From NCBI GenBank assembly GCA_044229975.1, contig JBGARZ010000022.1:1-64000 (forward strand): DNA of 64,000 bases, in the 5' to 3' direction. Source of the stretch: Polyangiales bacterium. GTDB taxonomy: Bacteria > Myxococcota_A > Polyangia > Polyangiales > Ga0077539. The notes under the pieces are model-generated. The model was not told the origin of the DNA and did no database searches. It saw only the letters and a program-made list of their open reading frames with translations. Made by a program: the position numbers and the translations under genes. Positions 32,990 to 45,709 of this stretch are shown here, piece by piece; position 1 is the stretch's first letter, and every line of letters starts with the position of its first letter.

Positions 32990-33226
32990 GCGGCGGCGGA
33001 GTTCGCGTGCCGCCCATGGGTCGGAGTGCGGTCGCTCACTCCGGGCTATTTCACGTGGTCACCTCGCTGCGCGAGGTTGCAGGGACTCACAACCGACCAT
33101 GGATGGTCGATGGGTTGTTCATTGAAACCAACGCTGCAACCTCGCGCAGCGAGGTGACCACGTGAAGTAGCCCGGAGTGAGCGACCGCACTGCGACTCAT
33201 GGGCGGCACGCGAACTCCGCCGCCGC
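32990..33226. mobile_element. Long inverted-repeat element (MITE/REPIN-like): 93-bp arms, 51-bp spacer
   Basis: 32990-33082 is the reverse complement of 33134-33226 with 3 mismatches. Mobility is inferred. Confidence 0.6.
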
Positions 33227-33239
33227 TCCGAGCAGTCTC

Positions 33240-35348
33240 CTACGAGCACTCCCCGAGGGAGCTGCCGTTGATCTGGATGCTCACGCCGTTGATGGAGCGT
33301 GAGGTGCAGCAGTCGTCGATGTGGGTCAGCACGATGCGGTTGCGGCCCGTCACGAGGAAGCGCGACAGGTCGGTGGTGGCGCCGTCCGAGCCGAGCAGCA
33401 CGTACGACGACGGGTCGACGATGCCCGCCGGGTAGCGCGAGTTGTGCACCGTGATGCGAACGCCATCATCGACGGAGCCAATGCGCACGATGAGGCTCGA
33501 CACCGCGTAGCCCGCCGGGATGTCGAAGAAGGTCTGGAAGAACGTGAACTCCCCGCCGTTGAGGCACGTGCACACGCGCCCGCACAGCGCCGACCCCTCC
33601 GAGAACCCGATGTCCGTACGCTCCACCGGCGTCCACGACCCGTCGGCCTCGTTGGGAATCGACGCCAGCTCGTACTCGCCCGCGTCGCCGTGCACCGAAA
33701 ACGTCCGACCGAAGCACACCGGCCCGCTCGCGCGGCTGATCTGCCAGGGCGACCCCGAGGCCGTGAGGCACGGCAGGCAGCCGGTGTTCACCTCGCCCAC
33801 GCACGCACCCCAGTTCGAGGCGCCGCCCGAGGCCGTGCAGGTCTGCGTGCCGCCGTGGCAGCGCCCGACGCCCTCGGTGCCCGCCGCGCCCGTGTAGCAG
33901 GGGCGCGTGGTGGTCGCGACGCACGCGCAGCGCGTACCCGCCCCCGAGCACGATCGATCGACGCCGTCGCAGGTGTCCGTCGTGGGCGTCACCTCGCCGT
34001 CGCAGCCGCCCCACGCCGACGTGCTCCCGCTCACGATGCACTGTTGGGTGCCCGCGCGGCAGAGGCCCACGCCATTCGTCGAGGGGAGCCCGCTGTAACA
34101 AGACCGCGTCGCCCCCGCGAGGCAGGTGCACGACGCGGTGCTGCCCGTGCACGCGCGGTCGACGCCGTCGCAGCGGTCGGCCACCGGGGTGACCTCGCCC
34201 TCGCACGCGCCCCACACCGAGCCGGCGCCGGTGAAGAGGCAGCGCTGCGTTCCGCCGCGGCAGAGGCCGACGCCCCGTGTCCCGGCCGGGCCCGAGTAGC
34301 ACTCGCGCATCGTGCCGGTGGTGCACGCGCAGGGCGACGTGGTGCCCGTGCACGAGCGATCGACGCCGTCGCAGGTGTCGCTCGTCGGCGTGACCTCGCC
34401 CACGCACGCGCCCCACGCCGTGCGCCCCGACTCGGTGCGCCCGCACACCTGCGAGCCCGCGCGGCAGGCGCCCACGCCCATCGTCGCCGGTGCGCCCGTG
34501 TAGCAGGAGCGACTGCGCCCGAGGATGCAGTCGCAGTCGGCTTCGGGCATGCCGTTGCAGGCGCGGTCGACGCCGTCGCACTGGCTCGTGGTCGGGGTGA
34601 CCTCGCCCTCGCACGCGCCCCACACGGCGCCGGTGGCGGTCATCGTGCAGGTGGAGGTTCCGGCGCGGCAGGCGCCCCGACCGGCGGTGCCCGCGGCCCC
34701 CGAGTAGCACGAGCGGGTCATGCCCGGCGTGCACGCGCAGCCCTCGTCGATGACGCCGTTGCAGCGCCAATCGCGCCCCTCACCACAGCGCACCATCTGG
34801 GGCGAGCCCGCGCCCATGCACGCGCTCCACGTCCCGAACTCGCCGGTGCCCATGCACTGCTGCATCCCGAAGTTGCAGACGCCGCGTCCGGCCTCGGCGG
34901 GAGCGCCCGGGTAGCACCGCTGGCTCTGACCTGGGAGGCACGGGCACGACTCGTCGAGGCGACCGTCGCAGTTGTCGTCGAGGCCGTTGTTGCAGATCTC
35001 CATCGGCACGCAGCCCGTGACGGGCGGGCTCACGACGGCGCCGTCGGGGAGCTGCACCGCGCCGTCGCCGAGCACCACGCTGCCGTCGGGGTAGCCCGCG
35101 GCGCCGTCGGTGGGCGCGACGCTTCCGTCGTTGGGGGTGACGCCGCCGCCGTCCATGGTCGACGCGCCGTCGGTGGGAGCGCCCGCCTCGCGGTCGGCGC
35201 GGCCGTTGGCGTCGGTGCGGCCGAGGTCGGTGCCGGTGCCTCCATCGCCGGGGTCGTGCACCGCGTAGTCCGAGTCGAAACAGCCCCCGAGGGAGAGCGC
35301 CACGAACCACAAGGCCCACCATCGCGACGACATCGGCAAGTACCTCAC
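33240..35348 (-). CDS. Cys-rich repeat lipoprotein (MopE-related / myxobacterial Cys repeats)
   Basis: EICNNGLDDNCDG and about six CYxGxxGTxGxGxCRAGTQxC...WGACxGEVTP...CDGVD repeats. Confidence 0.85.
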   Translation of the reverse strand: MRYLPMSSRWWALWFVALSLGGCFDSDYAVHDPGDGGTGTDLGRTDANGRADREAGAPTDGASTMDGGGVTPNDGSVAPTDGAAGYPDGSVVLGDGAVQLPDGAVVSPPVTGCVPMEICNNGLDDNCDGRLDESCPCLPGQSQRCYPGAPAEAGRGVCNFGMQQCMGTGEFGTWSACMGAGSPQMVRCGEGRDWRCNGVIDEGCACTPGMTRSCYSGAAGTAGRGACRAGTSTCTMTATGAVWGACEGEVTPTTSQCDGVDRACNGMPEADCDCILGRSRSCYTGAPATMGVGACRAGSQVCGRTESGRTAWGACVGEVTPTSDTCDGVDRSCTGTTSPCACTTGTMRECYSGPAGTRGVGLCRGGTQRCLFTGAGSVWGACEGEVTPVADRCDGVDRACTGSTASCTCLAGATRSCYSGLPSTNGVGLCRAGTQQCIVSGSTSAWGGCDGEVTPTTDTCDGVDRSCSGAGTRCACVATTTRPCYTGAAGTEGVGRCHGGTQTCTASGGASNWGACVGEVNTGCLPCLTASGSPWQISRASGPVCFGRTFSVHGDAGEYELASIPNEADGSWTPVERTDIGFSEGSALCGRVCTCLNGGEFTFFQTFFDIPAGYAVSSLIVRIGSVDDGVRITVHNSRYPAGIVDPSSYVLLGSDGATTDLSRFLVTGRNRIVLTHIDDCCTSRSINGVSIQINGSSLGECS

Positions 35349-35418
35349 TGGGGCCGATGGTAGGCACGCCTCGCCAACGCGCGAAACCTACGAGCGCGCG
35401 ATGGTGACGGGTGGGATC

Positions 35419-35575
35419 TACGCCGCGGCGTCCACGCGGGGCACACCGGTCGGGCCCGCAGTGCGCGGGTCCTACGCCGCGGCGTAGGGCAAGCGCAGTG
35501 GTCGGGTTCCTCCTCACCGGGCCTACGCCGCGGCGTCAGCGCGGCGCGCGCCGGTCGGGCCCGCAGTGCGCGAGG
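35419..35575 (+). repeat. Three degenerate copies of the 53-54 bp REP-like unit
   Basis: tacgccgcggcgt palindrome three times, with ccggtcgggcccgcagt; same unit as 43541-44341. Confidence 0.85.
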
Positions 35576-35621
35576 CCACACTGCCAGTCCCGCTCGCACG
35601 AAGCGGCCCTACGTTGGGCTC

Positions 35622-35954
35622 ATGAGCAGCGAAACCAACGCGGTGACCTGGAAGGACGGCTCCCGGTGGAGCACGGGGGCGGGCGTATTCCGACGACTGA
35701 CCGGACGGCTCGACGGGCTGCGCGACACGGTGGTGGGCTTGGGGCCGGTGCTCGATCGGTGGAAGGCACGGGGCGCGGGGGCCGTCGACGTGGACGACTT
35801 CGCGCCGACGGAGGACGACCGCGCAGTGCTGACCGCGGCGCTGGCGCGGGTGGTCGAGGACGACGACGGGGACGCGAGCGAGGAGGGGAGGGCGGTGGGC
35901 ACCGAGGCGCGGGCGCTGCACGAGTTGTTCATGACGGATGTGACGAAGGGGTAG
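35622..35954 (+). CDS. Hypothetical protein
   Basis: 110 aa ORF whose stop lies inside the truncated attC. Confidence 0.55.
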   Translation: MSSETNAVTWKDGSRWSTGAGVFRRLTGRLDGLRDTVVGLGPVLDRWKARGAGAVDVDDFAPTEDDRAVLTAALARVVEDDDGDASEEGRAVGTEARALHELFMTDVTKG

Positions 35955-35995
35955 CGGCGGAGGCGGGGGCAGTCGGCACCAGCGGCTTGTTGGGC
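35941..35995 (-). other. Truncated attC site (R''-L'' half only)
   Basis: Minus strand GCCCAACAAGCCGCTGGTGCCGACTGC; the L'/R' half is missing. Confidence 0.75.
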
Positions 35996-36041
35996 GGGGC
36001 TCCACTCTGTCCCGAAGGCATCCTCAAAACCGAGGCGTTCG

Positions 36042-36479
36042 TCAGCCTGCAACGTCGGGTTCGGGAGAATCCACCACGAGATCCGGATGAAGAGTGTGCG
36101 TTTCCCAGAAGTAGGGGTGTTCCCGAAGGACCGGCGTTGGCTTGATGGTCCGCTGTGCGGGGCGCATGCGACTCTTGAATCGCTCGTCGATGGGTGTGAC
36201 AGCTGCGCGAAGGCGCGCTGCTGTCTCGGCGCTTGCATGCTCGATGGAGAGTTGAATCCATACGCGGCAGCCAATCTCGTGGTTGTACTCGGATGGGTCC
36301 CAGTTCGACCAGTCGGTGTCCACGAACTGAGCCCACTGGGAGAAGTGGTCATGGAGTGTCGCTCCAACGTATGCGTCTACAAGAGTCGGGTGCTCGCCCC
36401 AGCGCTGAATCGCCACTCGAATTGCGGCCAGGTCGGTCAGGGTAATCGACACGTCGAACTCTGGTTCTCGTACTTGCAC
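36042..36479 (-). CDS. Integron cassette 6 gene, hypothetical
   Basis: Single ORF between two attC sites; GTG start just after the R' box. Confidence 0.65.
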   Translation of the reverse strand: MQVREPEFDVSITLTDLAAIRVAIQRWGEHPTLVDAYVGATLHDHFSQWAQFVDTDWSNWDPSEYNHEIGCRVWIQLSIEHASAETAARLRAAVTPIDERFKSRMRPAQRTIKPTPVLREHPYFWETHTLHPDLVVDSPEPDVAG

Positions 36480-36494
36480 CGTTGCCTCGATTTT

Positions 36495-36585
36495 GCCTGA
36501 TGGCTGGCCGCCGCGCCGCCGCAGCGGACGCGACGGGGTAGTGGCGGGTGAAGCGACCGCGGTCGGCACCATCGGCTTGTTGGGC
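36495..36585 (-). other. attC site (degenerate R')
   Basis: 91 bp; R'' GCCCAAC, R' decayed to ATCAGGC. Confidence 0.8.
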
Positions 36586-36597
36586 AGGGCGCGCATC

Positions 36598-37116
36598 TCA
36601 AGTCTCGGCGACCGCTGGGAGAGCATTGAAGTCCCTGATCGACGACTCGACCAGATTCGCCAGAGCGATCCATTCACCTGGGACAATCGCACCGTGCCAC
36701 GACAATCGCGATCTCGCTTGCCCTACAAATGCAGCCACCTCGTAGCGCACTCCGTCGCAGGCTTCTGCCGGTATTCGTTGTGTTCGTATGGGGACCAAAA
36801 GACCGTCAATCGATCCCACCAACTTCTCGACGATCTCCGGGTCGATCATCACCCGAGAAAATCCAAAAACGAAGTCGTCCTCGGGCTCTGCGGAAAGAGA
36901 ACGGTACAGCCGCAGTACATCCTCTCTGTAGATTTCATAGCATACGGTAGGTTCGAACGAGGGTCTATATACAAGTTGAAGCAGGCGTTCGCCCGAGCCA
37001 GGAAAGCACCACCATTCGTCGTGGATATGCCTCGGCGTGGTCGTCGCGATCCGCTTCTCGCTCTCGAACTCCGCGAGGCGCCTCTCAAGTTTTCGCTGCG
37101 CCTTAGTACTCGGCAT
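36598..37116 (-). CDS. Integron cassette 5 gene, hypothetical
   Basis: 172 aa, lower GC, stops just before attC; RPSFEP...CDGVRYE. Confidence 0.75.
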   Translation of the reverse strand: MPSTKAQRKLERRLAEFESEKRIATTTPRHIHDEWWCFPGSGERLLQLVYRPSFEPTVCYEIYREDVLRLYRSLSAEPEDDFVFGFSRVMIDPEIVEKLVGSIDGLLVPIRTQRIPAEACDGVRYEVAAFVGQARSRLSWHGAIVPGEWIALANLVESSIRDFNALPAVAET

Positions 37117-37195
37117 CGCTACTCTCCCAATCTACTGCCGTCCCGCAGGCAGAGCGATCTCATGGGACGCCTACAATCGGCGGCGACGAGGCTCC

Positions 37196-37286
37196 GCCCA
37201 ACGGCAGGCCTCTGTGCCGCCGCAGCGGGCACGGCTGGTTGGCAGAGGGTGAATGGGGAGCGGTCGGCACCATCGGCTTGTTGGGC
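37196..37286 (-). other. attC site
   Basis: 91 bp; GCCCAAC...GTTGGGC. Confidence 0.9.
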
Positions 37287-37313
37287 TCACCGCTCTTTGG
37301 TAGGCTCCCCGAC

Positions 37314-37508
37314 ATGACTGCCAGGAAGATCGAAAACCGCCTCCCCGACGACCACCCCGCCTTGTTGGCTGCACGGCGTGCCCCGATCGAGTCCGAAACG
37401 GATGAGGAACGTGAGGTGGTCGAGGCTGCGATGAACTCGGGACAACTCGTGCCTGGGTCGATCGTGACGGCGGAACTCGCGCGGCGCGCACGTCGGCCCC
37501 ATGGCTGA
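37314..37508 (+). CDS. Putative antitoxin (cassette 4)
   Basis: 64 aa acidic ORF overlapping the downstream RelE-like gene. Confidence 0.6.
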   Translation: MTARKIENRLPDDHPALLAARRAPIESETDEEREVVEAAMNSGQLVPGSIVTAELARRARRPHG

Positions 37509-37746
37509 TTTGGAGATTCTCTGGACCCCCGCTGCGATCTGGGCGCTCCGCAGCTTTCACTGGCGTGAGGGCGAAGTCATTGACGCCGCTGTGCAGAAGT
37601 TTGCTCGGACGGGCGAGGGGCATGTGACTCGAATTGACGGGTCGCTGAGCCGGATGCGCCTCTACGTGCCGCCATTCACCGTGCGGTTCAGCCTGGACCA
37701 AGACAAGGGCGTACTCGTGGTCGCTTGGGTGTGGCGACAAGACTGA
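37501..37746 (+). CDS. RelE/ParE-like toxin (cassette 4)
   Basis: ILWTPAAIWAL...IDAAVQKFARTGEGHV...RLYVPPFTVRF...VLVVAWV fits the RelE layout. Confidence 0.65.
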   Translation: MADLEILWTPAAIWALRSFHWREGEVIDAAVQKFARTGEGHVTRIDGSLSRMRLYVPPFTVRFSLDQDKGVLVVAWVWRQD

Positions 37747-37903
37747 CGAGCAGGCTGTCGATGCCCTGGCCTCGCCGCTCGGTGCTTGGTTTGTCGTCAT
37801 CCCGCTGCCCTCGTTGATCGCAGCCCGCTGTCCGCAGTCGACTGCCTGTTGCTCGTTGACCGCGACTCGCAGCTTGCTCTTCCACAGCCCGTCGCTCGTC
37901 GCT

Positions 37904-37994
37904 GCCCAACGGCCTGCCGATGTGCCGCCGCAACGGGTGCAGCGGGTTGGTGGTGGGTGAAGCGGGAGCGGTCGGCACCATCGGCTTGTTAGAT
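37904..37994 (-). other. attC site
   Basis: 91 bp; R'' ATCTAAC, L'' CCGATGGTGCCG / L' CGGCACATCGG, R' GTTGGGC. Confidence 0.93.
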
Positions 37995-38153
37995 GTGCCG
38001 GATATCGCTCGCCGCTCACCCGTTTGCCGGAACCCGTTACTCGTCGTCTCGTCTGTCGCCTCGGCCGTTGTCACGCCACTGCTCTCACTGGCCGATGCAT
38101 GGAGTCTTTGGGAGAGATTGCTGATTGCAGGCCGGAGAGGTGACACAGCATGG

Positions 38154-38429
38154 CTACACTCGATACTCCAGCCCAAGGAGATTCATCGCCTCTTTCAATG
38201 CGATCGGTCTAGCGGCCTTCGTCTGCTCATCAACGAAGAGAAAGTTACTTGTACCAAGCGGCATATACGCCATGTCGCGATCCACCGTCCAACGAGCGTC
38301 AGCGTATGGAGCGACCCAACCGCCCTCTACCTTGGTGTAGTCCTCCTTCCGCGTCGCGAGCCTGTCATCGATATAGTCCACTCGGCCCAGAGCTTCTTCA
38401 GCAAGTCGATACGCCTCGTCTACATCCAT
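38154..38429 (-). CDS. Cassette 3 gene, YrhB/Imm35-like small protein
   Basis: MDVDEAYRLAEEAL...GWVAPY...PLGTSNFLFVDEQT resembles the YrhB/Imm35 pattern. Confidence 0.5.
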   Translation of the reverse strand: MDVDEAYRLAEEALGRVDYIDDRLATRKEDYTKVEGGWVAPYADARWTVDRDMAYMPLGTSNFLFVDEQTKAARPIALKEAMNLLGLEYRV

Positions 38430-38719
38430 CACGGCACCTCGTCCCTTGACTCCCTCACAAGCCCCACGACCGCTCTTCACACACCGCGTGAGGCGTATTT
38501 CTTCCTCGCCTTTTCCAAATAGATGCACCAGACGTCACCGCCGGCCGCCTGCTCGCTGGGGTCTTTCGTCGTTCGTCGTCTGGACCGTTGTCACGCCGCT
38601 TTCCTCATTGACCGATGCTCGCGGTCGCCACTCGTTGTCCGTTGCCCACAGCCCATTGCTCGTTGGCCGTGGCCCAATCGTTGCCTTTTCGCCGCCCGTA
38701 GCTCGCTGCCCTGTGCTCT

Positions 38720-38810
38720 ATCTAACGACTGGCCGATGTGCCGCCGCAGCAGACGCGGCGGGGTGGTAGTGGGTGAGGTGGCGGCGGTCGGCACCATCGG
38801 CTTGTTGGAC
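38720..38810 (-). other. attC site
   Basis: 91 bp; R'' GTCCAAC, R' GTTAGAT. Confidence 0.93.
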
Positions 38811-38845
38811 ATCTCGGCAGACGCGGGGTGTATGTTTGCAGCCAG

Positions 38846-40573
38846 CTATTCCGCAGACCACCTCGGGACAAACGACGTTGCCGGGACAGTCATCAGCTTC
38901 ATCAACTCCTTGCCGTTCGGCCACCCCGGAATCATTGTCGCAACGGTGCTCGCTGCGAGGCTTTCAGCATTTACACTGGCGACCGCCTTCAGCCAGTTCA
39001 TTGGACTGAACAACTTTCCGCTTGGTTGTGTATTGATCGCATTCTGAAGAGCATTGTCCAAGCAGCTGGCAGCCAGCGTCAGGATCTCGGTCGGCTGCTG
39101 AGCCGCCTTCAACGTCGCGGCGGGCTCCACAACGAGTTGCTGCTTGTTGGCTCTGGCAATAATAGCCGACACAACAAACAGCACATGATACTTAGCATAG
39201 CCCTTTCCTGCCTTTATCGTATCGTCGAACGTAAAATTGGACCACAGATCCTCAATGGCGTTCAGCCACGTCTGGAGGGCAAGCATTGACGCCGGATTGT
39301 AGCCAGTACGAAAGAGAGTTTTGTAGTGATCATCAAACAATCGTTTCTCGTTATACGAAATATTCGGCCTCTGGCAGTGCCAGGCCATTAGCATTTTTCC
39401 GAGTATGGCTGTGTCGATGGTCTTTGCCGCATCTCTATTGGCAGGTCGTTCTTCTCCTCTCTTGGTGAGGAGATAGCCGTCCGGGTATTGAATCTCATAC
39501 GCTCTCTTCAGTCCCACCAAGACCTTGTCGTTGCTCTTAAGATCTCGTGGCTTTACCTGAGTCTGCGAGTTCGTGTTGATGCTGATTCGATCCCCAAGCG
39601 CTCGGTCAGGAATCTCGTAAAGCCGAAAGAGAATTCGCGCATCGGAGGCTTCCGACGAGCGCACTCGCTCCGAGACCGAAAAGATCGTTGAAAGCGACTG
39701 GCATCCGTTCACGACGCTCAGTCCCTTGATGTTCATGGTTTTCCCGTCGTCGCTTATGGCGACGGAATCACATAGTGCGGTAACGCCATTGTGGTAGAAG
39801 AAAAATTCCCTCACTCGATCGCCATTGTTGATGGTGTCTTTGAGTGCCCTGTTTACCTTGTTCATTCCGAGCGACTGACGGACGTTCTTGCGAAAAAGAC
39901 GCCCGTCCTTGATCCCAGGCAGCCGTAGACATTCCTTCAAAGGCAAGACGGCTAGTACCGTCTGGGCAGAGCCTAGCTTTGTGACCAATGTGCTAGCAGG
40001 ATCAACGATCATCGCATGGTCCAATGACGGAAGTTCCTGCGCTTCAGCCTCGGCGAGCCGCAGCTTGAGAACATCTGTGTCGATGAGATGGAGCCCTGCT
40101 TCGAAGTCGTCAGATTTTTCCAGATTTTCCGCAAAGGCTTTCAAGTCTCCCCGCGCAGCGTCGGTCAATGCGCCCGTCGTGATCAACTCGAAGTCCACTC
40201 GGTAGTCGTCCTCCAGAGCTCGTCGAACCGCTTCGAGTTTCACTTTGAGTTTGTCGTTGGCATCCTTTTGCAAGGACGGAAGGTCTTGAAGTCGCATCCA
40301 CGCGCCTAGCACTTCACGAAGCGGCTCCCCATCGACGGGGCTCCCGTCGATGAATTTGCCTTGAATAACGATCACTCTACGCTCTTCGTCCTCAACGATG
40401 ATGGCGTCGATCTGCTTGTCATTGGCGCCGTCGGTGATGTCGTCCCGCGTTGCGACCGCATCACGAAGCAGTACCCTTCGCAGATGCCAGGCAACAAAAC
40501 GCTGGCCATCGTTGGCGAAATTCTGCTGATAGTAACTACCGTCCGTGATCTCACGCTTGATCTGATCGATCAT
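38846..40573 (-). CDS. AIPR (abortive infection phage resistance) family protein, cassette 2
   Basis: ITDGANDKQIDA, IQGKF, LFRKNVRQSLG, FFFYHNGVT, VVNGCQS, NTNSQTQVKPRDLKSND. Confidence 0.9.
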   Translation of the reverse strand: MIDQIKREITDGSYYQQNFANDGQRFVAWHLRRVLLRDAVATRDDITDGANDKQIDAIIVEDEERRVIVIQGKFIDGSPVDGEPLREVLGAWMRLQDLPSLQKDANDKLKVKLEAVRRALEDDYRVDFELITTGALTDAARGDLKAFAENLEKSDDFEAGLHLIDTDVLKLRLAEAEAQELPSLDHAMIVDPASTLVTKLGSAQTVLAVLPLKECLRLPGIKDGRLFRKNVRQSLGMNKVNRALKDTINNGDRVREFFFYHNGVTALCDSVAISDDGKTMNIKGLSVVNGCQSLSTIFSVSERVRSSEASDARILFRLYEIPDRALGDRISINTNSQTQVKPRDLKSNDKVLVGLKRAYEIQYPDGYLLTKRGEERPANRDAAKTIDTAILGKMLMAWHCQRPNISYNEKRLFDDHYKTLFRTGYNPASMLALQTWLNAIEDLWSNFTFDDTIKAGKGYAKYHVLFVVSAIIARANKQQLVVEPAATLKAAQQPTEILTLAASCLDNALQNAINTQPSGKLFSPMNWLKAVASVNAESLAASTVATMIPGWPNGKELMKLMTVPATSFVPRWSAE

Positions 40574-40731
40574 ATTTTTTCCTCCGGTGTGCTTGCGAGA
40601 GTGTCAGAGCCGACTGCCGTTGTTCAAGAGTCTTCGTGTCGCCTGCGTCGTAATCACCACATTGATCGCTTTTCTTCGCTCGTGACCCGCCGTTTGCCAC
40701 CTCACAGCCGGCCGCCCGCTGCTCTGTGGCT

Positions 40732-40822
40732 GTCCAACGGCTGGCCGATGTGCCGCCGCAGCGGGTGTAACGGGTTGGCATTGGGCGAGTTGGCGGCGGT
40801 CGGCACCATCGGCTTGTTGGGC
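40732..40822 (-). other. attC site
   Basis: 91 bp; R'' GCCCAAC, R' GTTGGAC. Confidence 0.93.
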
Positions 40823-40870
40823 GGTCTTGCCACAGAGTCCTGATCTCCAGATCGACGAAGCCGCGCAGTA

Positions 40871-41653
40871 TCACTTAGTCCCGAGTGCTCGATCCCACAA
40901 CAAGACTTGTGTTTGAATGGCTCCGGAGTCACCACCAGACAGCATGTCAAATTCTTCATTTGACATCGCGGCGATTTTTTCTCTAATAAGCTGATCTTCA
41001 GAAAGCAATCGCCGGTTCTGAATTGCTGAATTTGATCTTGCAAAGCCCAGCATACAGCGGACAACTCCATCAGCGAGCGTTTTCCGATCCGCGGATCGCA
41101 ACCAAGCGATCAGGCGGTTCAGATCGGCTAACGAATCAGACGTCGGACGCATGCCCGATAAAAGAAAAAGACCTTCGTAATGATACCACAACACGTCATC
41201 AAAAGAGCAGGACGGCCGTTGCCAATCTTGATACCGCACGGAACACAGCTCTTCGTAGAAGAGCCGAGAAGCCTCGAGTCGTTGCGCAACCCGATCAGCC
41301 GAACAGGGCGCCGTGTGAGCAGTTACCACGCTGATGGTGCCGTAGGCCGTGTCCAATGAGTACTTATCGAACTCGTGGCCGAACGGACGCCGATCCACGT
41401 CCTTTCGTACGGACTGAATCGCCGCCTTCATCTCTCCCCAGAGATACGCTCGCCACTTCGGACCGTCCCAACTGAAGTCGCTCGTCGCGTCGATCACAAC
41501 GATCTGATCGGCCGCAACCGGTTGGACAGGGATCTGGGGGAATTGCCCTGACTTCTTGTACGCTCGCGCCCATCGCATGCCCTCGCGCCGCACCGCCTGC
41601 CGAACAGCAGGAGCGGTTCCATAGAGGAAATCTGGAATTTCCAAGCACTTCAT
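40871..41653 (-). CDS. Integron cassette 1 gene, hypothetical
   Basis: 260 aa, low GC, AGAGGA RBS; ends just before the first attC. Confidence 0.8.
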   Translation of the reverse strand: MKCLEIPDFLYGTAPAVRQAVRREGMRWARAYKKSGQFPQIPVQPVAADQIVVIDATSDFSWDGPKWRAYLWGEMKAAIQSVRKDVDRRPFGHEFDKYSLDTAYGTISVVTAHTAPCSADRVAQRLEASRLFYEELCSVRYQDWQRPSCSFDDVLWYHYEGLFLLSGMRPTSDSLADLNRLIAWLRSADRKTLADGVVRCMLGFARSNSAIQNRRLLSEDQLIREKIAAMSNEEFDMLSGGDSGAIQTQVLLWDRALGTK

Positions 41654-41719
41654 CGCGTCCTCTCTTGGCTAGAATACCGCATCGATGAGCGGGTCAGCGA
41701 GTTCATCGGGGGGCGTCAC

Positions 41720-41763
41720 GCCCAACTCTGTCCGCCCAACATCTCATTCACCCGCCGCCCAAC
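41720..41763 (-). other. Candidate attI region
   Basis: Three GTTGGGC cores (minus strand 41720-26, 41734-40, 41757-63) between the first cassette and the intI remnant, complementary to cassette 1 R''. Confidence 0.55.
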
Positions 41764-41774
41764 CTCACTCTTCT

Positions 41775-41959
41775 GCTGTTCGCCCGCCGCCGTCACTGCC
41801 GAACCCCATTTCGTCCGTTGTTCGCCCGCCGCCGTCACTGCCGAATCCCCATTCGTCCGTGGTTCGCCCGCTGCCGTCACTGCCGAACCCCGTTCGTCCG
41901 TTGTTCGCCCGCCGCCGTCACTGCCGAACCCCATTCTCCCGTTGTTCGCCCGCCGCTGT
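41775..41959 (+). repeat. Tandem repeat, 41-42 bp unit, about 4.4 copies
   Basis: gttcgcccgccgccgtcactgccgaaccccattcgtccgtt starting at 41778, 41820, 41862, 41903 and 41944 (partial). Confidence 0.92.
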
Positions 41960-41989
41960 CCACCCCTCCGCGCCCGCGCCGCCCTTCTG

Positions 41990-42385
41990 CTCGCCCATGC
42001 CCGCGGCGCCCGCGCCGCTCCGATCGAATCTGCCCATCGACGCCAACCCGCGGATCCCGCCATCGGCCGCGTCGAAGTCCACCGCCCCCACGCGCCTCGT
42101 GTGCCAACACGGCTTCCCCATATCGCGTCCCTCTGCCGCCGTCGCGACCTGCACAGCAACAACCCTCCACAAGGCGCCCCACGATGTTGCTGCGCCCGGA
42201 GGCAGCGATCGTCGCTCCATCTGTCGCCGCGTCGTCACCGATGACCCCAATGAACCCCGAACGACCCTCCGCACCATCCAGGAGCCGCCAGGCCACGAGG
42301 ACCGCCGCACCACGATGATCGCCCCTCCACCATGTTGTCGACCGCAGCTCGCCAGGCGTGGCGAGCCCGCTCGACCGCCGGTCGC
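41990..42385 (+). pseudogene. intI: Integron integrase C-terminal remnant, multiply frameshifted
   Basis: Across frames: ADPAIGRVEVHRPHAPR, QHGFPISRPS, RRRDLH, LHKA...RRSICR, LRTIQEPPGHEDRRTTMI, HVVDRSSPGVASPLDR. These parallel the IntI motifs DL..G.G.V.LP.AL, WQWVFP, RRHH, RTVQELLGH.DV.TTMIYTHV...GV.SPLD. Confidence 0.8.
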
Positions 42386-42516
42386 CCTTCACTCCCCTTC
42401 AATCCTCAGTTGATCGTTGGAACCGCTCCCACAGCAGTGTGCGGGAGCGCGTCGTTTCCGGGGCATCCGGCCATGCGGGAGCCGCATCCCTCTTCGGTCA
42501 GCGGTGCGCCTCTGCG

Positions 42517-43323
42517 CTATGCCGTCCCCTTCTTGTCGTCCGTCCCTTCGGTCTTCCCCTTCGCCTTCGCCTTCTTCTTCCCGACCGCCCTCCCGGGCCG
42601 CCGGAACCGCCGCGCCTCCGCCGCGTCCTCCCGCAGCGCGAAGCGCCCTGCGGTGCACAGCCGCGCCGCGATCGCATCGACCTGCGTCCAGGCCGCGTTG
42701 CGCAGTCGTGTGTGCAGCTTGTTCGCTTCGGCGTCCGGCGCTGACACCTTCGGCAACGCCGCCGCCGCCTTCGTCATCCGCTTCCGCGCTGCGCCCAGCT
42801 TCGAGAAGCGCACCAACGACGCCTTGTTCTCCTCGCAGAACGCCTCAAGCGCCCGCACATCATCGTGCAGGTCGGCGAGCCCGTCGCCGCGCAACACCTC
42901 ACGGCACCACGCGCGCTTCCTGGCGTCCTTGCGAAACGCGAAGCGAATGACCGCCACGACATCGCCTTCCGCCGCGCGCGCTTCGTCGTAGAGCGTCTTC
43001 TGCTTGGGCGTGAGGTTCGACGTGCCCACCTGCCGCCGCGTGTGCTCGTCCTGAAGCGTGGTCAGCAGCGCCAGCGCCCCCGAAAACCGCCCGATCTCGC
43101 CCTCGGTCAGATCGTCGTCGGGGTCCATCGGCGTCGCCAGCAGGGCAGCCTTGTGGGGCCCGACCGCGGCCTCCAGCGCCTGCGCCCACGTGATGTACGC
43201 CGGAACATCCCGATTGGGCCGCTTGATCTCCCCTGCGGGAACAGCCTCCAACTCCGACCGCAGCGCCGCCCCGACATCCCGGGGCACGCGGCTCCCACCC
43301 GTCTTCGTCTTCCGCTCCGCCAT
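42517..43323 (-). CDS. Hypothetical helical protein
   Basis: 268 aa from MAERKTKTGG, GGAGG RBS, Lys-rich tail. Confidence 0.75.
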   Translation of the reverse strand: MAERKTKTGGSRVPRDVGAALRSELEAVPAGEIKRPNRDVPAYITWAQALEAAVGPHKAALLATPMDPDDDLTEGEIGRFSGALALLTTLQDEHTRRQVGTSNLTPKQKTLYDEARAAEGDVVAVIRFAFRKDARKRAWCREVLRGDGLADLHDDVRALEAFCEENKASLVRFSKLGAARKRMTKAAAALPKVSAPDAEANKLHTRLRNAAWTQVDAIAARLCTAGRFALREDAAEARRFRRPGRAVGKKKAKAKGKTEGTDDKKGTA

Positions 43324-43386
43324 GTGCAGACCTCCAGCAACGACCGTATCAGCGGCTGCCAGAGCGCAGCAACGCCTACATGGGTC

Positions 43387-43540
43387 GGTGAGCGGGTCGA
43401 CCAGTGTGGTGAGCGGGTCGACCGGTGTGGTGAGCGGGTCGACCAGTGTGGTGAGCGGGTCGACCAGTGTGGTGAGCGGGTCGACCAGTGTGGTGAGCGG
43501 GTCGACCAGTGTGGTGAGCCCGTCGGACAACTCGGTGAGC
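43387..43540 (+). repeat. Tandem repeat, 21-bp unit, 6 near-perfect copies plus degenerate copies
   Basis: ggtgagcgggtcgaccagtgt at 43387, 43408, 43429, 43450, 43471 and 43492. Confidence 0.95.
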
Positions 43541-44341
43541 CGCGCACCGATCAGGCCCGCAGTCACGGGGGCCCACGCCGCGGCGTCAGCGCGGCGCGCA
43601 CCGGTCCGGCCCGCAGTCACCGGGGCTACGCCGCGGCGTCAGCGCGGCGCGCATTGGTCAGGCCCGCAGCCACCGGGGCCACGCCGCGGCGTCAGCGCGG
43701 CGCGCATTGGTCAGGCCCGCAGTCACCGGGGCTACGCCGCGGCGTCAGCGCGGCGCGCACCGGTCAGGCCCCAGTCGCCTGCCGTCCGTTGATCGATGTT
43801 GGTCCGGACTGTGACTGCAGGCCCGACCGTTGCGCGCCGCGCTGACGCCGCGGCGTGGGCCCCGGTGACTGCGGGCCTGACCGTTGCGCGCCGCGCTGAC
43901 GCTGCGGCGTAGCCCCGGTGGCTGCAGGCCCGACCGTTGCGCGCCGCGCTGACGCCGCGGCGTAGCCCCGGTGACTGCGGGCCCGACCGGTGCACGCCGC
44001 GCTGACGCTGCGGCGTGGCCCCCGTGACTGCGGGCCTGACCGGTGCGCGCCGCGCTGACGCCGCGGCGTGGGTCCGCCGACTGCGGGCCTGACCGTTGCG
44101 CGCCGCGCTAACGCTGCGGCGTAGGGCCGGTGACTGCGGACGTGAGCGTTGCGCGCCGCGCTGACGCCGCGGCGTGGGCCCCCGTGACTGCGGGCCTGAC
44201 CGGTGCGCGCCGCGCTGACGCCGCGGCGTGGGCCCCCGTGACTGCGGGCCTGACCGTTGCGCGCCGCGCTGACGCCGCGGCGTGGGTCCGCCGACTGCGG
44301 GCCTGACCGGTGCGCGCCGCACCGACCCCGCGGCGTGGGTC
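43541..44341. repeat. REP/BIME-like array: 53-54 bp unit, about 4 forward then about 10 inverted copies
   Basis: Unit contains the palindrome acgccgcggcgt. Forward block 43541-43775, reverse block 43811-44341. Confidence 0.92.
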
Positions 44342-44350
44342 CGCCGCCGC

Positions 44351-45709
44351 TCAGTACCCGTCGATCACGCTGAGCGCCTCGTCGTGGGCCGAGTTCACCG
44401 CGGCCTGCGGGGCGGCGGAGGTCGCGCCCGAGGTCGGCGACGTCATCGCGGGCAGCGCGCGGCGCATCGAGCTCACCCGCCCGATCTGCTCCCGGTACGC
44501 GCGGCTGTTTCGCGTCGAGGCGTCGCTGCGCGCCCGGTCGAGCAGCGCGTCGAGCTGCCGCTCGGCGGCGGCGACGTTGCCGCTGCGGGCCTCGCGGATG
44601 GCGGCCACGGTGCCGACGGCGAGCTGCACCTGCGCGGCCACTGCCTCGACCTCCGCGCTACGACCGCCCTCGATCTCCGCCGCATCGCTGCTCGCGTGGG
44701 CCCCCAGAAACACATCCCGCTCGTAGCGCTCGGAGGGGGCGGCCGGGTCGTTCCAGGCGAGGCGGGCGTCGACGAGCTCGATGGGCGAGCCCGCGCGGTG
44801 CGCCGGAACGTTGAGCCTCACGATGAGGTCCCGCGTCGCCCCTTCGGTGATCTCGCCGAGCTGCACGGTGATGCCCGCGTCGGTGCGCGCGGCGTCGTGT
44901 CCGAGCACCGCCTCGATCTGCACATCGGGCCCGGGGCTCAGCGTCACCACGGCGTTGCGGGCGATGACGCGCTCCATGCGCAGCACCTCGGTGCGAAACG
45001 CCGTCGCCACCGCCGAGGAGTCTTCGACGTAGTGGAAGTGTCCGCCCGAGCGCTGCGCGATCGCGCCCATGAGGGTCTCGTTGTATTCGAGCCCGAGGCC
45101 GAGGGACGTGATGGTGATCTGGTGGGCCCCGGCGCTCGCCGCCATCGCCTCGATGCTCGCCGCGTCCGTGTTGGGAACCCCATCCCCCAACAGCACCACG
45201 CGGTTGATGCCGCCGGTGTTGAGGTGCGCGGCGACCTGCTCGATGCCGAGGCGCAGGCCGTTGGCCATGTCGGTGGTTCCGCGGGCGCGCATCGCGCTGA
45301 TGCGCTGGCGGGCCGCGGCGCGCTCGCTCGCGTCGAGGACGGCGGAGGGGAAGATGACCTCGGCGCGCGAGTCGAAGGTGACGACGGCGAGGCGGTCGCC
45401 GTCGCGCATGGCGTCGACGAGCGCGAGGCTGGCGGCGCGGGCGTCGTCGATGGGCCGACCCTCCATGGAGCCCGACGTATCGATGACGAGGCCGACGTTG
45501 ATGGGCGGTCGGATGGTCGGGTCGACGGCGGCGGTCGCGAGGCGTAGCCGCGCAACGAGCGTGCTGCGCGCCCCGGCGGGGACGAAGCGGTTGCCGAGGG
45601 CGCCGTCGAGGGAGAGGGCTTGCGGGGTTCGTGCGTGGCGCTGGGCGCCGGCGCAGGCCGCGAGGGAGGAGAACAGGGCGAAGACGAAGAGCAGCAATGG
45701 GCGTCGCAT
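44351..45709 (-). CDS. VWA domain lipoprotein
   Basis: VIDTSGSMEG MIDAS motif, GTTDMANGL, VVLLGDG. Confidence 0.9.
   Translation of the reverse strand: MRRPLLLFVFALFSSLAACAGAQRHARTPQALSLDGALGNRFVPAGARSTLVARLRLATAAVDPTIRPPINVGLVIDTSGSMEGRPIDDARAASLALVDAMRDGDRLAVVTFDSRAEVIFPSAVLDASERAAARQRISAMRARGTTDMANGLRLGIEQVAAHLNTGGINRVVLLGDGVPNTDAASIEAMAASAGAHQITITSLGLGLEYNETLMGAIAQRSGGHFHYVEDSSAVATAFRTEVLRMERVIARNAVVTLSPGPDVQIEAVLGHDAARTDAGITVQLGEITEGATRDLIVRLNVPAHRAGSPIELVDARLAWNDPAAPSERYERDVFLGAHASSDAAEIEGGRSAEVEAVAAQVQLAVGTVAAIREARSGNVAAAERQLDALLDRARSDASTRNSRAYREQIGRVSSMRRALPAMTSPTSGATSAAPQAAVNSAHDEALSVIDGY

Follow-up and report, generated by a model that had tools for sequence, protein, structure and literature searches.

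The DNA analysed here is a stretch of 64,000 nucleotides (nt) from a Polyangiales bacterium (GenBank assembly GCA_044229975.1, contig JBGARZ010000022.1, positions 1 to 64,000), hereafter the window, which carries a six-cassette chromosomal integron array with an attI-type site at position 41740 and a broken 3' remnant of intI, which encodes the integrase of an integron (Table 1). The element is a decayed integron made up of intI remnant, attI and six cassettes, and the matching cores at its cassette ends are almost certainly explained by integration at G^TT. As an account of the whole element, we favour with moderate confidence a combination of circle insertion at G^TT, a dead local intI and continued service in trans by the intact integrase (IntI) encoded on another contig, C4. 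The source genome (G000; 93% complete) contains the window as contig C28, positions 1–64000, and the cassette top strand corresponds to the minus strand; other G numbers denote the genomes of relatives and L numbers denote loci in them. The array lies in a low-GC island (52%–65% GC, compared with 71% for the genome), in which a repeat search of the window revealed six copies of a ~91-bp repeat. An attC profile scan of the source genome returned 43 sites (E <0.05) in 10 clusters, four of the sites being partial, and the same attC family was present in 15 out of 18 same-family genomes and in 0 out of 12 other genomes of the order.

Complementary cores and folding of the attC sites

In an integron, IntI cuts attC on its folded bottom strand and integrates cassette circles at attI. 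On the minus strand, the attC sites of the window consist of R'', a 5-nt spacer, L'' (GATGGTGC), a variable loop, L' (GCACATC), a spacer of 8 nt (as opposed to the 5 nt on the other arm) and R'. Four full sites show the R''/R' boxes (RYYYAAC/GTTRRRY) flanking L''/L' with genes upstream, the fifth site has a degenerate R', and the sixth is a half site. In the literature, the crossover is placed between the first two bases of GTTRRRY (PMC8876359), the features of the attC hairpin are described (Bouvier et al. 2009, PMC2727003), and spacers of up to 10 nt are reported (PMC7370490).

A preliminary description of this DNA held that each cassette starts with the exact reverse complement of its own R'' box, and the three pairs it named are all present: GTTGGAC (40738–40732, minus strand) with GTCCAAC (38810–38804) in the cassette carrying an AIPR-domain gene, GTTAGAT (38726–38720) with ATCTAAC (37994–37988) in cassette 3, and GTTGGGC (37910–37904) with GCCCAAC (37286–37280) in the putative toxin-antitoxin (TA) cassette. 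Matches to the own core also occur in cassette 5 and in the cassette behind attI (start 41740). From family core frequencies, the joint chance of the three window matches is approximately 5e-4. The TA pair itself says little because GTTGGGC/GCCCAAC is the family consensus (15/32 cassette starts in the source genome). The further claim that the start core differs from that of the adjoining attC held for the AIPR cassette and cassette 3, but not for the TA cassette, where the adjoining core fits as well as the own R''; only the first two pairs are therefore discriminating.

Scoring exact matches on core positions 4–7, and restricting the own-core test to non-first cassettes in which both cores were readable, we found that 23 out of 32 cassettes in the source genome matched their own R'' (permutation mean 8.7; none of 200,000 permutations reached as many). 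Matches to the adjoining core were seen at 13 of 39 sites (permutation mean 9.5, P = 0.07), and in 30 paired cases the own core was the better match in 16, the adjacent core in 4, with 10 tied. The pattern recurred in relatives (40 loci from 11 same-family genomes that carry the attC family, after removal of sites lacking AAC/GTT in register and of gaps >2.5 kb), with own matches in 51 of 71 cassettes versus 15.9 expected and adjoining-core matches in 26 of 95 versus 20.7 expected (P = 0.06), although kin and duplicated cassettes are not independent, so that these P values overstate the significance. Excess complementarity was located at core positions 4, 6, 7 and 8, and essentially none was seen past position 8.

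Rebuilding the cassettes as circles cut at G/TT and folding their bottom strands yielded the hairpin with extrahelical bases that the preliminary description had anticipated, and the R stem paired at 7/7 positions in the four full window sites. The extrahelical bases follow a T-N6-C arrangement on one arm (C bulging out of the L box, and T six bases further) and are present on the bottom strand of all five near-full sites. In this respect, the expected pairing of the L''/L' arms around an unpaired C and T stands, with the qualification that the L box holds additional mismatches in the TA attC (37196–37286; two) and in the site at 36495–36585 (three). Sites of the T-N6-C type are excised efficiently by several IntIs, and G is the more common extrahelical base (PMC3053210). 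The bottom strand folded more stably than the top strand in 4/4 full window sites, and the circular form was more stable than the present one in 16 of 30 cassettes of the source genome, less stable in 5 and equal in 9 (Wilcoxon P = 0.004).

The genome-wide, relatives' and folding tests thus all agree with the proposal that circular cassettes integrating at G^TT produced the matches. Each cassette would have entered at G^TT in circular form; while it was circular, its own attC hairpin would have been completed by the six bases now found at the cassette start, which insertion would have left at the front. A very unlikely alternative is that the matches arose without an integrase, as near-identical attC repeats underwent tandem duplication or gene conversion: the attC family is homogeneous, GTTGGGC dominates, and a few tandem duplicates exist elsewhere (the start of C23, L021), but the window cassette bodies are unrelated, own matches are enriched across unrelated bodies, and adjacent matches, which either conversion or selection acting on the hairpin as integrated would make more frequent, remain close to the chance level. 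Core complementarity as such is not new because it is a published consequence of G^TT integration, which leaves sites that are attI/attC or attC/attC chimeras (Cury et al. 2016, PMC4889954). It is textbook, the expected mark of a genuine cassette array, and matters here only as confirmation that the array is real. The matches record the past arrival of units cut at G^TT; they reveal neither present activity nor which integrase acted.

Table 1. Coordinates of the integron features in the window and of one cassette found behind several heads
Feature	Position	Strand	Description
Decayed intI remnant	41971..42378	+	3' half of intI, ~codons 162–316, frameshifted, divergent from the array
Five 41–42-bp tandem units upstream of the crossover	41757..41960	-	homology with other attI heads' repeat region
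attI core homologue GGTGAAT GAGAT G^TT	41734..41756	-	crossover after G at 41740
Cassette 1	40738..41739	-	open reading frame (ORF) 40871–41653, 260 aa, no family; attC 40732–40822
Cassette 2	38726..40737	-	AIPR-domain gene 38846–40573, 575 aa; attC 38720–38810
Cassette 3	37910..38725	-	ORF 38154–38528, 124 aa; attC 37904–37994
Cassette 4 (TA cassette)	37202..37909	-	attC 37196–37286, two L-box mismatches
Putative TA pair of cassette 4	37314–37508 and 37501–37746	+ (opposite strand)	overlapping small ORFs
Cassette 5	36501..37201	-	ORF 36598–37116, 172 aa; attC 36495–36585
Cassette 6	35955..36500	-	ORF ~36042–36479; half attC 35955–35995
2.7-kb cassette	G000:C19:433338–436055	-	also G000:C2:354654–354783 and L080:12858–15559; first position behind three different attI heads

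An attI-type site beside a dead integrase gene

The remnant corresponds to intI nt 483–948 (nhmmer with a five-gene intI profile, E = 3e-26; zero matches in 200 random 3-kb control stretches) and is also found by tblastn with the intact IntI of the source genome (E = 2e-7, genome-wide). None of its three translated frames retains the catalytic HxxRH motif or Tyr. It shares ~70% identity over aligned columns with same-genus intI, with 7–10 indels, compared with 88%–91% identity and no indels among the same-genus genes. By sequence divergence, it looks much older than the proximal attC sites, whose arms show 0–1 mismatches in 50, and than the intact cassette ORFs. The only IntI of the source genome above the TIGR02249 cut-off is at C4:248120–249070, with motifs at R134, H264/R267 and Y299; the closest IntI relatives (71%–85%) are mostly from Polyangiales metagenome-assembled genomes and Sorangium. 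Having no intact intI beside it, the window array is not a complete integron, and it belongs among the CALINs (attC clusters that have no integron-integrase; ≥2 attC, no intact intI nearby). The remnants on C28 and C20 both begin at intI nt 483–487. We considered a single ancestral truncated platform across the family, but this is unsupported because the remnants of relatives start at other intI positions.

By homology and position, attI lies between the intI remnant and the first cassette. When the GTT sites of the source genome are scored with a position weight matrix (PWM) built from six sites next to intI in other genomes, the window site at 41740 ranks joint second of 149,330, and six of the top seven sites are array heads or attI-type sites. 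The same motif occurs ~170–180 nt upstream of an intact intI in L047 (a training site) and L092 (outside the training set), and the C4 array begins behind GCCTACT GAGAT G^TT. The tandem-unit region is 68%–73% similar to the heads on C23, C14 and C2; its five units, which align with the repeat region of other heads, are likely accessory IntI sites that have expanded. Two heads, C14 (16.3) and C2:257027 (14.7), do not stand out from background in the ungapped PWM and rest on BLAST similarity to other heads. The PWM is also lineage-specific, as Sorangium intI-adjacent sites score low (6–9).

These results bear on the possibility that CALINs here were built at random secondary (attG) or attC sites and that the window head is a chance look-alike. 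Insertion at attG is efficient and 95% of CALINs have no recognizable intI pseudogene (bioRxiv 10.1101/2022.09.11.507474; PMC4889954), and one lone attC site on C8 does lack an attI-type head. Nonetheless, the rank of the window head, its identity to the motif beside intact intI in L047 and L092, and the intI remnant only 230 nt away largely exclude this origin for the window array, and we consider it extremely improbable.

Integrase-less heads, shared cassettes and probable service in trans

The source genome has eight attI-type heads: one beside an intact intI (C4), two beside a remnant (C28 and C20), and five (two on C2 and one each on C14, C19 and C23) for which no trace of intI lies within 3 kb, in addition to a decayed head on C39. 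Approximately 130 bp of the C23 head are 95% identical to another head. We retained 23 heads in relatives (22 of 28 PWM rows and one more), including five training sites. Three of these are accompanied by an intact intI, one by a frameshifted gene, seven by fragments (one at a contig end) and 12 by none, with <2 kb of sequence available for three of the 12. Of 20 first cassettes, 13 match their own R''. As a separate observation, a complete integron in L021 (G002:C5) has its attI region interrupted by ~1.2 kb of other DNA, so that the core lies 1.47 kb from the intact intI.

Several cassettes are shared between arrays. Three each occur in two arrays of the source genome at 92%–93% identity, with at least one different neighbour each: the pairs C20-70608/C23-365571 and C2+260563/C23-364387 have other neighbours, and C20-69623/C23+2630 has the same upstream but a different downstream neighbour. 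Furthermore, two different heads that lack an integrase (C19 and the end of C2) are followed, from G^TT on, by one 2.7-kb cassette (130/130 visible bases identical), as is a head in G001 (89%). This cassette has its own long attC of another family, which matches its own start core, and encodes a XerC-like tyrosine recombinase (287 aa). A second ORF (402 aa) resembles, by its motifs, an IS91-type (Y2) transposase.

The intact IntI on C4 likely serves the window array and the other attI-headed arrays in trans. We infer this service from two observations: the window remnant seems considerably older than the intact ORFs and the proximal attC sites, and recent shared cassettes sit at other orphan heads. 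Each new cassette would go in at attI and displace its predecessors outward, in line with the window's attC sites being more decayed the farther they lie from attI (arm mismatches of 0, 1, 3, 3 and 5, then a half site; the 0 of cassette 1 is relative to the family consensus). Local integrase activity would have ended long ago, with the C4 enzyme continuing to service the arrays. Extending this to the Polyangiales-like family gives a plausible but tentative model of a distributed integron, in which platforms spread to new loci, lose intI (often the 5' part and promoter), keep attI and stay live capture sites for one integrase acting in trans, with cassettes exchanged among approximately eight arrays.

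Several results weigh against the favoured account of the element. When penalties are imputed where sites are truncated, the positional decay trend across all arrays is weak (Spearman 0.32, P = 0.04). The search of relatives for shuffled window cassettes that the preliminary description had proposed failed to find any: the AIPR, cassette 5 and TA bodies were never whole in 30 family genomes, where only partial, gene-level matches were seen. No window cassette had a whole copy in the other arrays of the source genome or in the 40 relatives' loci (the only sets with which cassettes 1 and 3 were compared; cassette 6, its attC being incomplete, fell outside this comparison). Likewise, no whole cassette of the C4 array, the one beside the intact intI, recurs in another array of that genome, and G001 has many attC sites and no intI match. 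The sequencing runs listed as carrying this DNA were two DNA runs (small shares, 0.12 and 0.06) and no RNA run; both DNA runs consist of low-depth contigs, which contained no usable excision junction. Other intact intI copies may also be unassembled, given the genome completeness. Separately, joints between attC or attI copies in these runs were rejected as excision products; their short side measures 22–38 letters, and they fit multicopy attC sites of co-occurring organisms.

At the orthologous locus, a block spanning 35955–44340 is absent in five same-genus relatives: the orthologue of ORF 35622–35954 lies directly next to the gene that ends at 44351 in G002, G003 and G004, and it is the Cys-rich gene that neighbours this gene in G001 and G007. 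Six relatives' loci showed no attC, attI or intI at the orthologous place, so the block is lineage-specific at this locus. Its absence indicates arrival as a unit, which suits a somewhat unlikely alternative, that a complete integron arrived, its array having been built or brought with its own integrase, lost intI and has been static since, leaving the core matches as fossils. The decayed distal attC sites and the window cassettes' absence from any other array are in keeping with such stasis, and Xanthomonas is reported to have frozen arrays together with loss of intI (bioRxiv 10.1101/2025.06.18.660453). A static history is harder to reconcile with a remnant whose decay far exceeds that of the proximal attC sites and of the cassette ORFs, which are intact, or with a shared first cassette, identical where visible, at other integrase-less heads of the genome.

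The window array resembles known chromosomal integron arrays with chimeric attC (PMC4889954; PMC2727003) in its ~91-bp R''-L''...L'-R' sites, G^TT crossover, chimeric sites, bottom-strand hairpin with two extrahelical bases, and attI and intI divergent from the array; it differs in its dead intI fragment, L-box C instead of the more common G, and 8-nt L'-R' spacer. It is like the CALINs of PMC4889954 in having ≥2 attC and no intact intI nearby, with an IntI elsewhere in the genome (half of the CALINs there), and unlike them in its recognizable intI remnant (15/279 there) and retained attI homologue; eight attI-type heads in one genome also set the source genome apart. Loss of intI in one of several integrons is named there as a CALIN scenario, and IntegronFinder looks for attI of classes 1–3 only (PMC4889954). 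In Xanthomonas, intI was likewise lost by frameshift or deletion, with arrays kept and extra arrays elsewhere, and CALINs are said to be mobilizable in trans (bioRxiv 10.1101/2025.06.18.660453). The Xanthomonas platform is, however, ancestral at one locus (ilvD), whereas that of the window is lineage-specific, and the extra arrays of the source genome, unlike those of Xanthomonas, start with attI homologues of several sequence subtypes. Insertions of the SALIN (a lone attC site with no integron-integrase)/attG kind (Loot et al., bioRxiv 10.1101/2022.09.11.507474) similarly place cassettes far from an intact intI in an IntI-encoding genome, but the window's insertion point is not an unrelated site: it is homologous to attI and accompanied by repeats and an intI remnant.

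A preprint on Archaea (10.1101/2022.02.06.479319) reports attI only beside intI, and the origin and status of CALINs are left open in PMC4889954 and the attG preprint (10.1101/2022.09.11.507474). In the open-access literature, supplements excluded, we found no description of attI-headed CALINs in one genome or served in trans; PMC2674596 and PMC4670013 contributed nothing that settled the point. The satellite-attI variant is testable and worth following: the lineage-specific attI model places attI at the head of most arrays in the source genome and of many in relatives, so that an array that is integrase-less but still capturing can be tested directly with one integrase and natural attI variants. 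The same result suggests a way to re-examine CALINs in other clades. If the distributed-integron model is true, many CALINs would be satellite attI platforms, missed by current tools because attI is not modelled, rather than debris or attG insertions.

Cassette contents and neighbouring DNA

The AIPR-domain gene of cassette 2 (Pfam PF10592, E = 5e-32; PADLOC AbiU model, E = 3e-36) is an AbiU-like candidate defence gene. The ORF of cassette 3 has a weak Imm35 match, below cut-off. For the 81-aa ORF of the TA cassette, there was no match in Pfam, NCBIfam or PADLOC; an Atlas lead points to a RelE/ParE cluster (score 0.93, rank 9), and the layout agrees with a RelE/ParE-type toxin downstream of a small antitoxin gene, with no profile match. 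The attC of cassette 5 is degenerate (core ATCAGGC, L' mutated). The half attC of cassette 6 (35955–35995) stops exactly at the stop codon of the host ORF 35622–35954, and the last codons of this host ORF resemble the attC loop (window 35935–35995), which suggests trimming of the array's distal part by a microhomology deletion.

Long non-coding segments occur in the cassettes at 37760–37903, 38530–38719, 37995–38153 and 40575–40731; three of the four are purine-rich (63%–65%) on the top strand, with recurring CAACG-type words. Short non-coding stretches are common to unrelated cassettes of the window, C4, C23 and relatives, and may bear on cassette genesis. Very short cassettes were also noted, at G000:C4:244921–245131 (210 bp, no ORF seen) and, at ~230–340 bp, in L021, L027 and L030, some of them tandemly repeated or in first position.

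The inserted block also contains, at 42517–43323 and 43366–43533, a hypothetical gene preceded by 21-bp tandem repeats; it has a single paralogue, on C38 (50%), and five relatives carry homologues at other loci. A 53-bp palindromic repeat resembling repetitive extragenic palindromes (REP) forms arrays on both sides of the element, at 35418–35590 and 43532–44343, in both orientations. The repeat has dozens of copies in the source genome and none among the listed matches in eight same-genus genomes (E ≤1e-15); being genome-wide, the arrays were ruled out as integron-specific. Elsewhere in the window, an inverted repeat of 93 bp, near-perfect (97%) and with a loop of 51 nt, lies between convergent genes at 32990–33226 and is similar to a miniature inverted-repeat transposable element, and 33240–35348 (minus strand) encodes a repeat protein of 702 aa that is rich in Cys (201-bp repeats) and has a weak match to Cu-binding_MopE, below cut-off.

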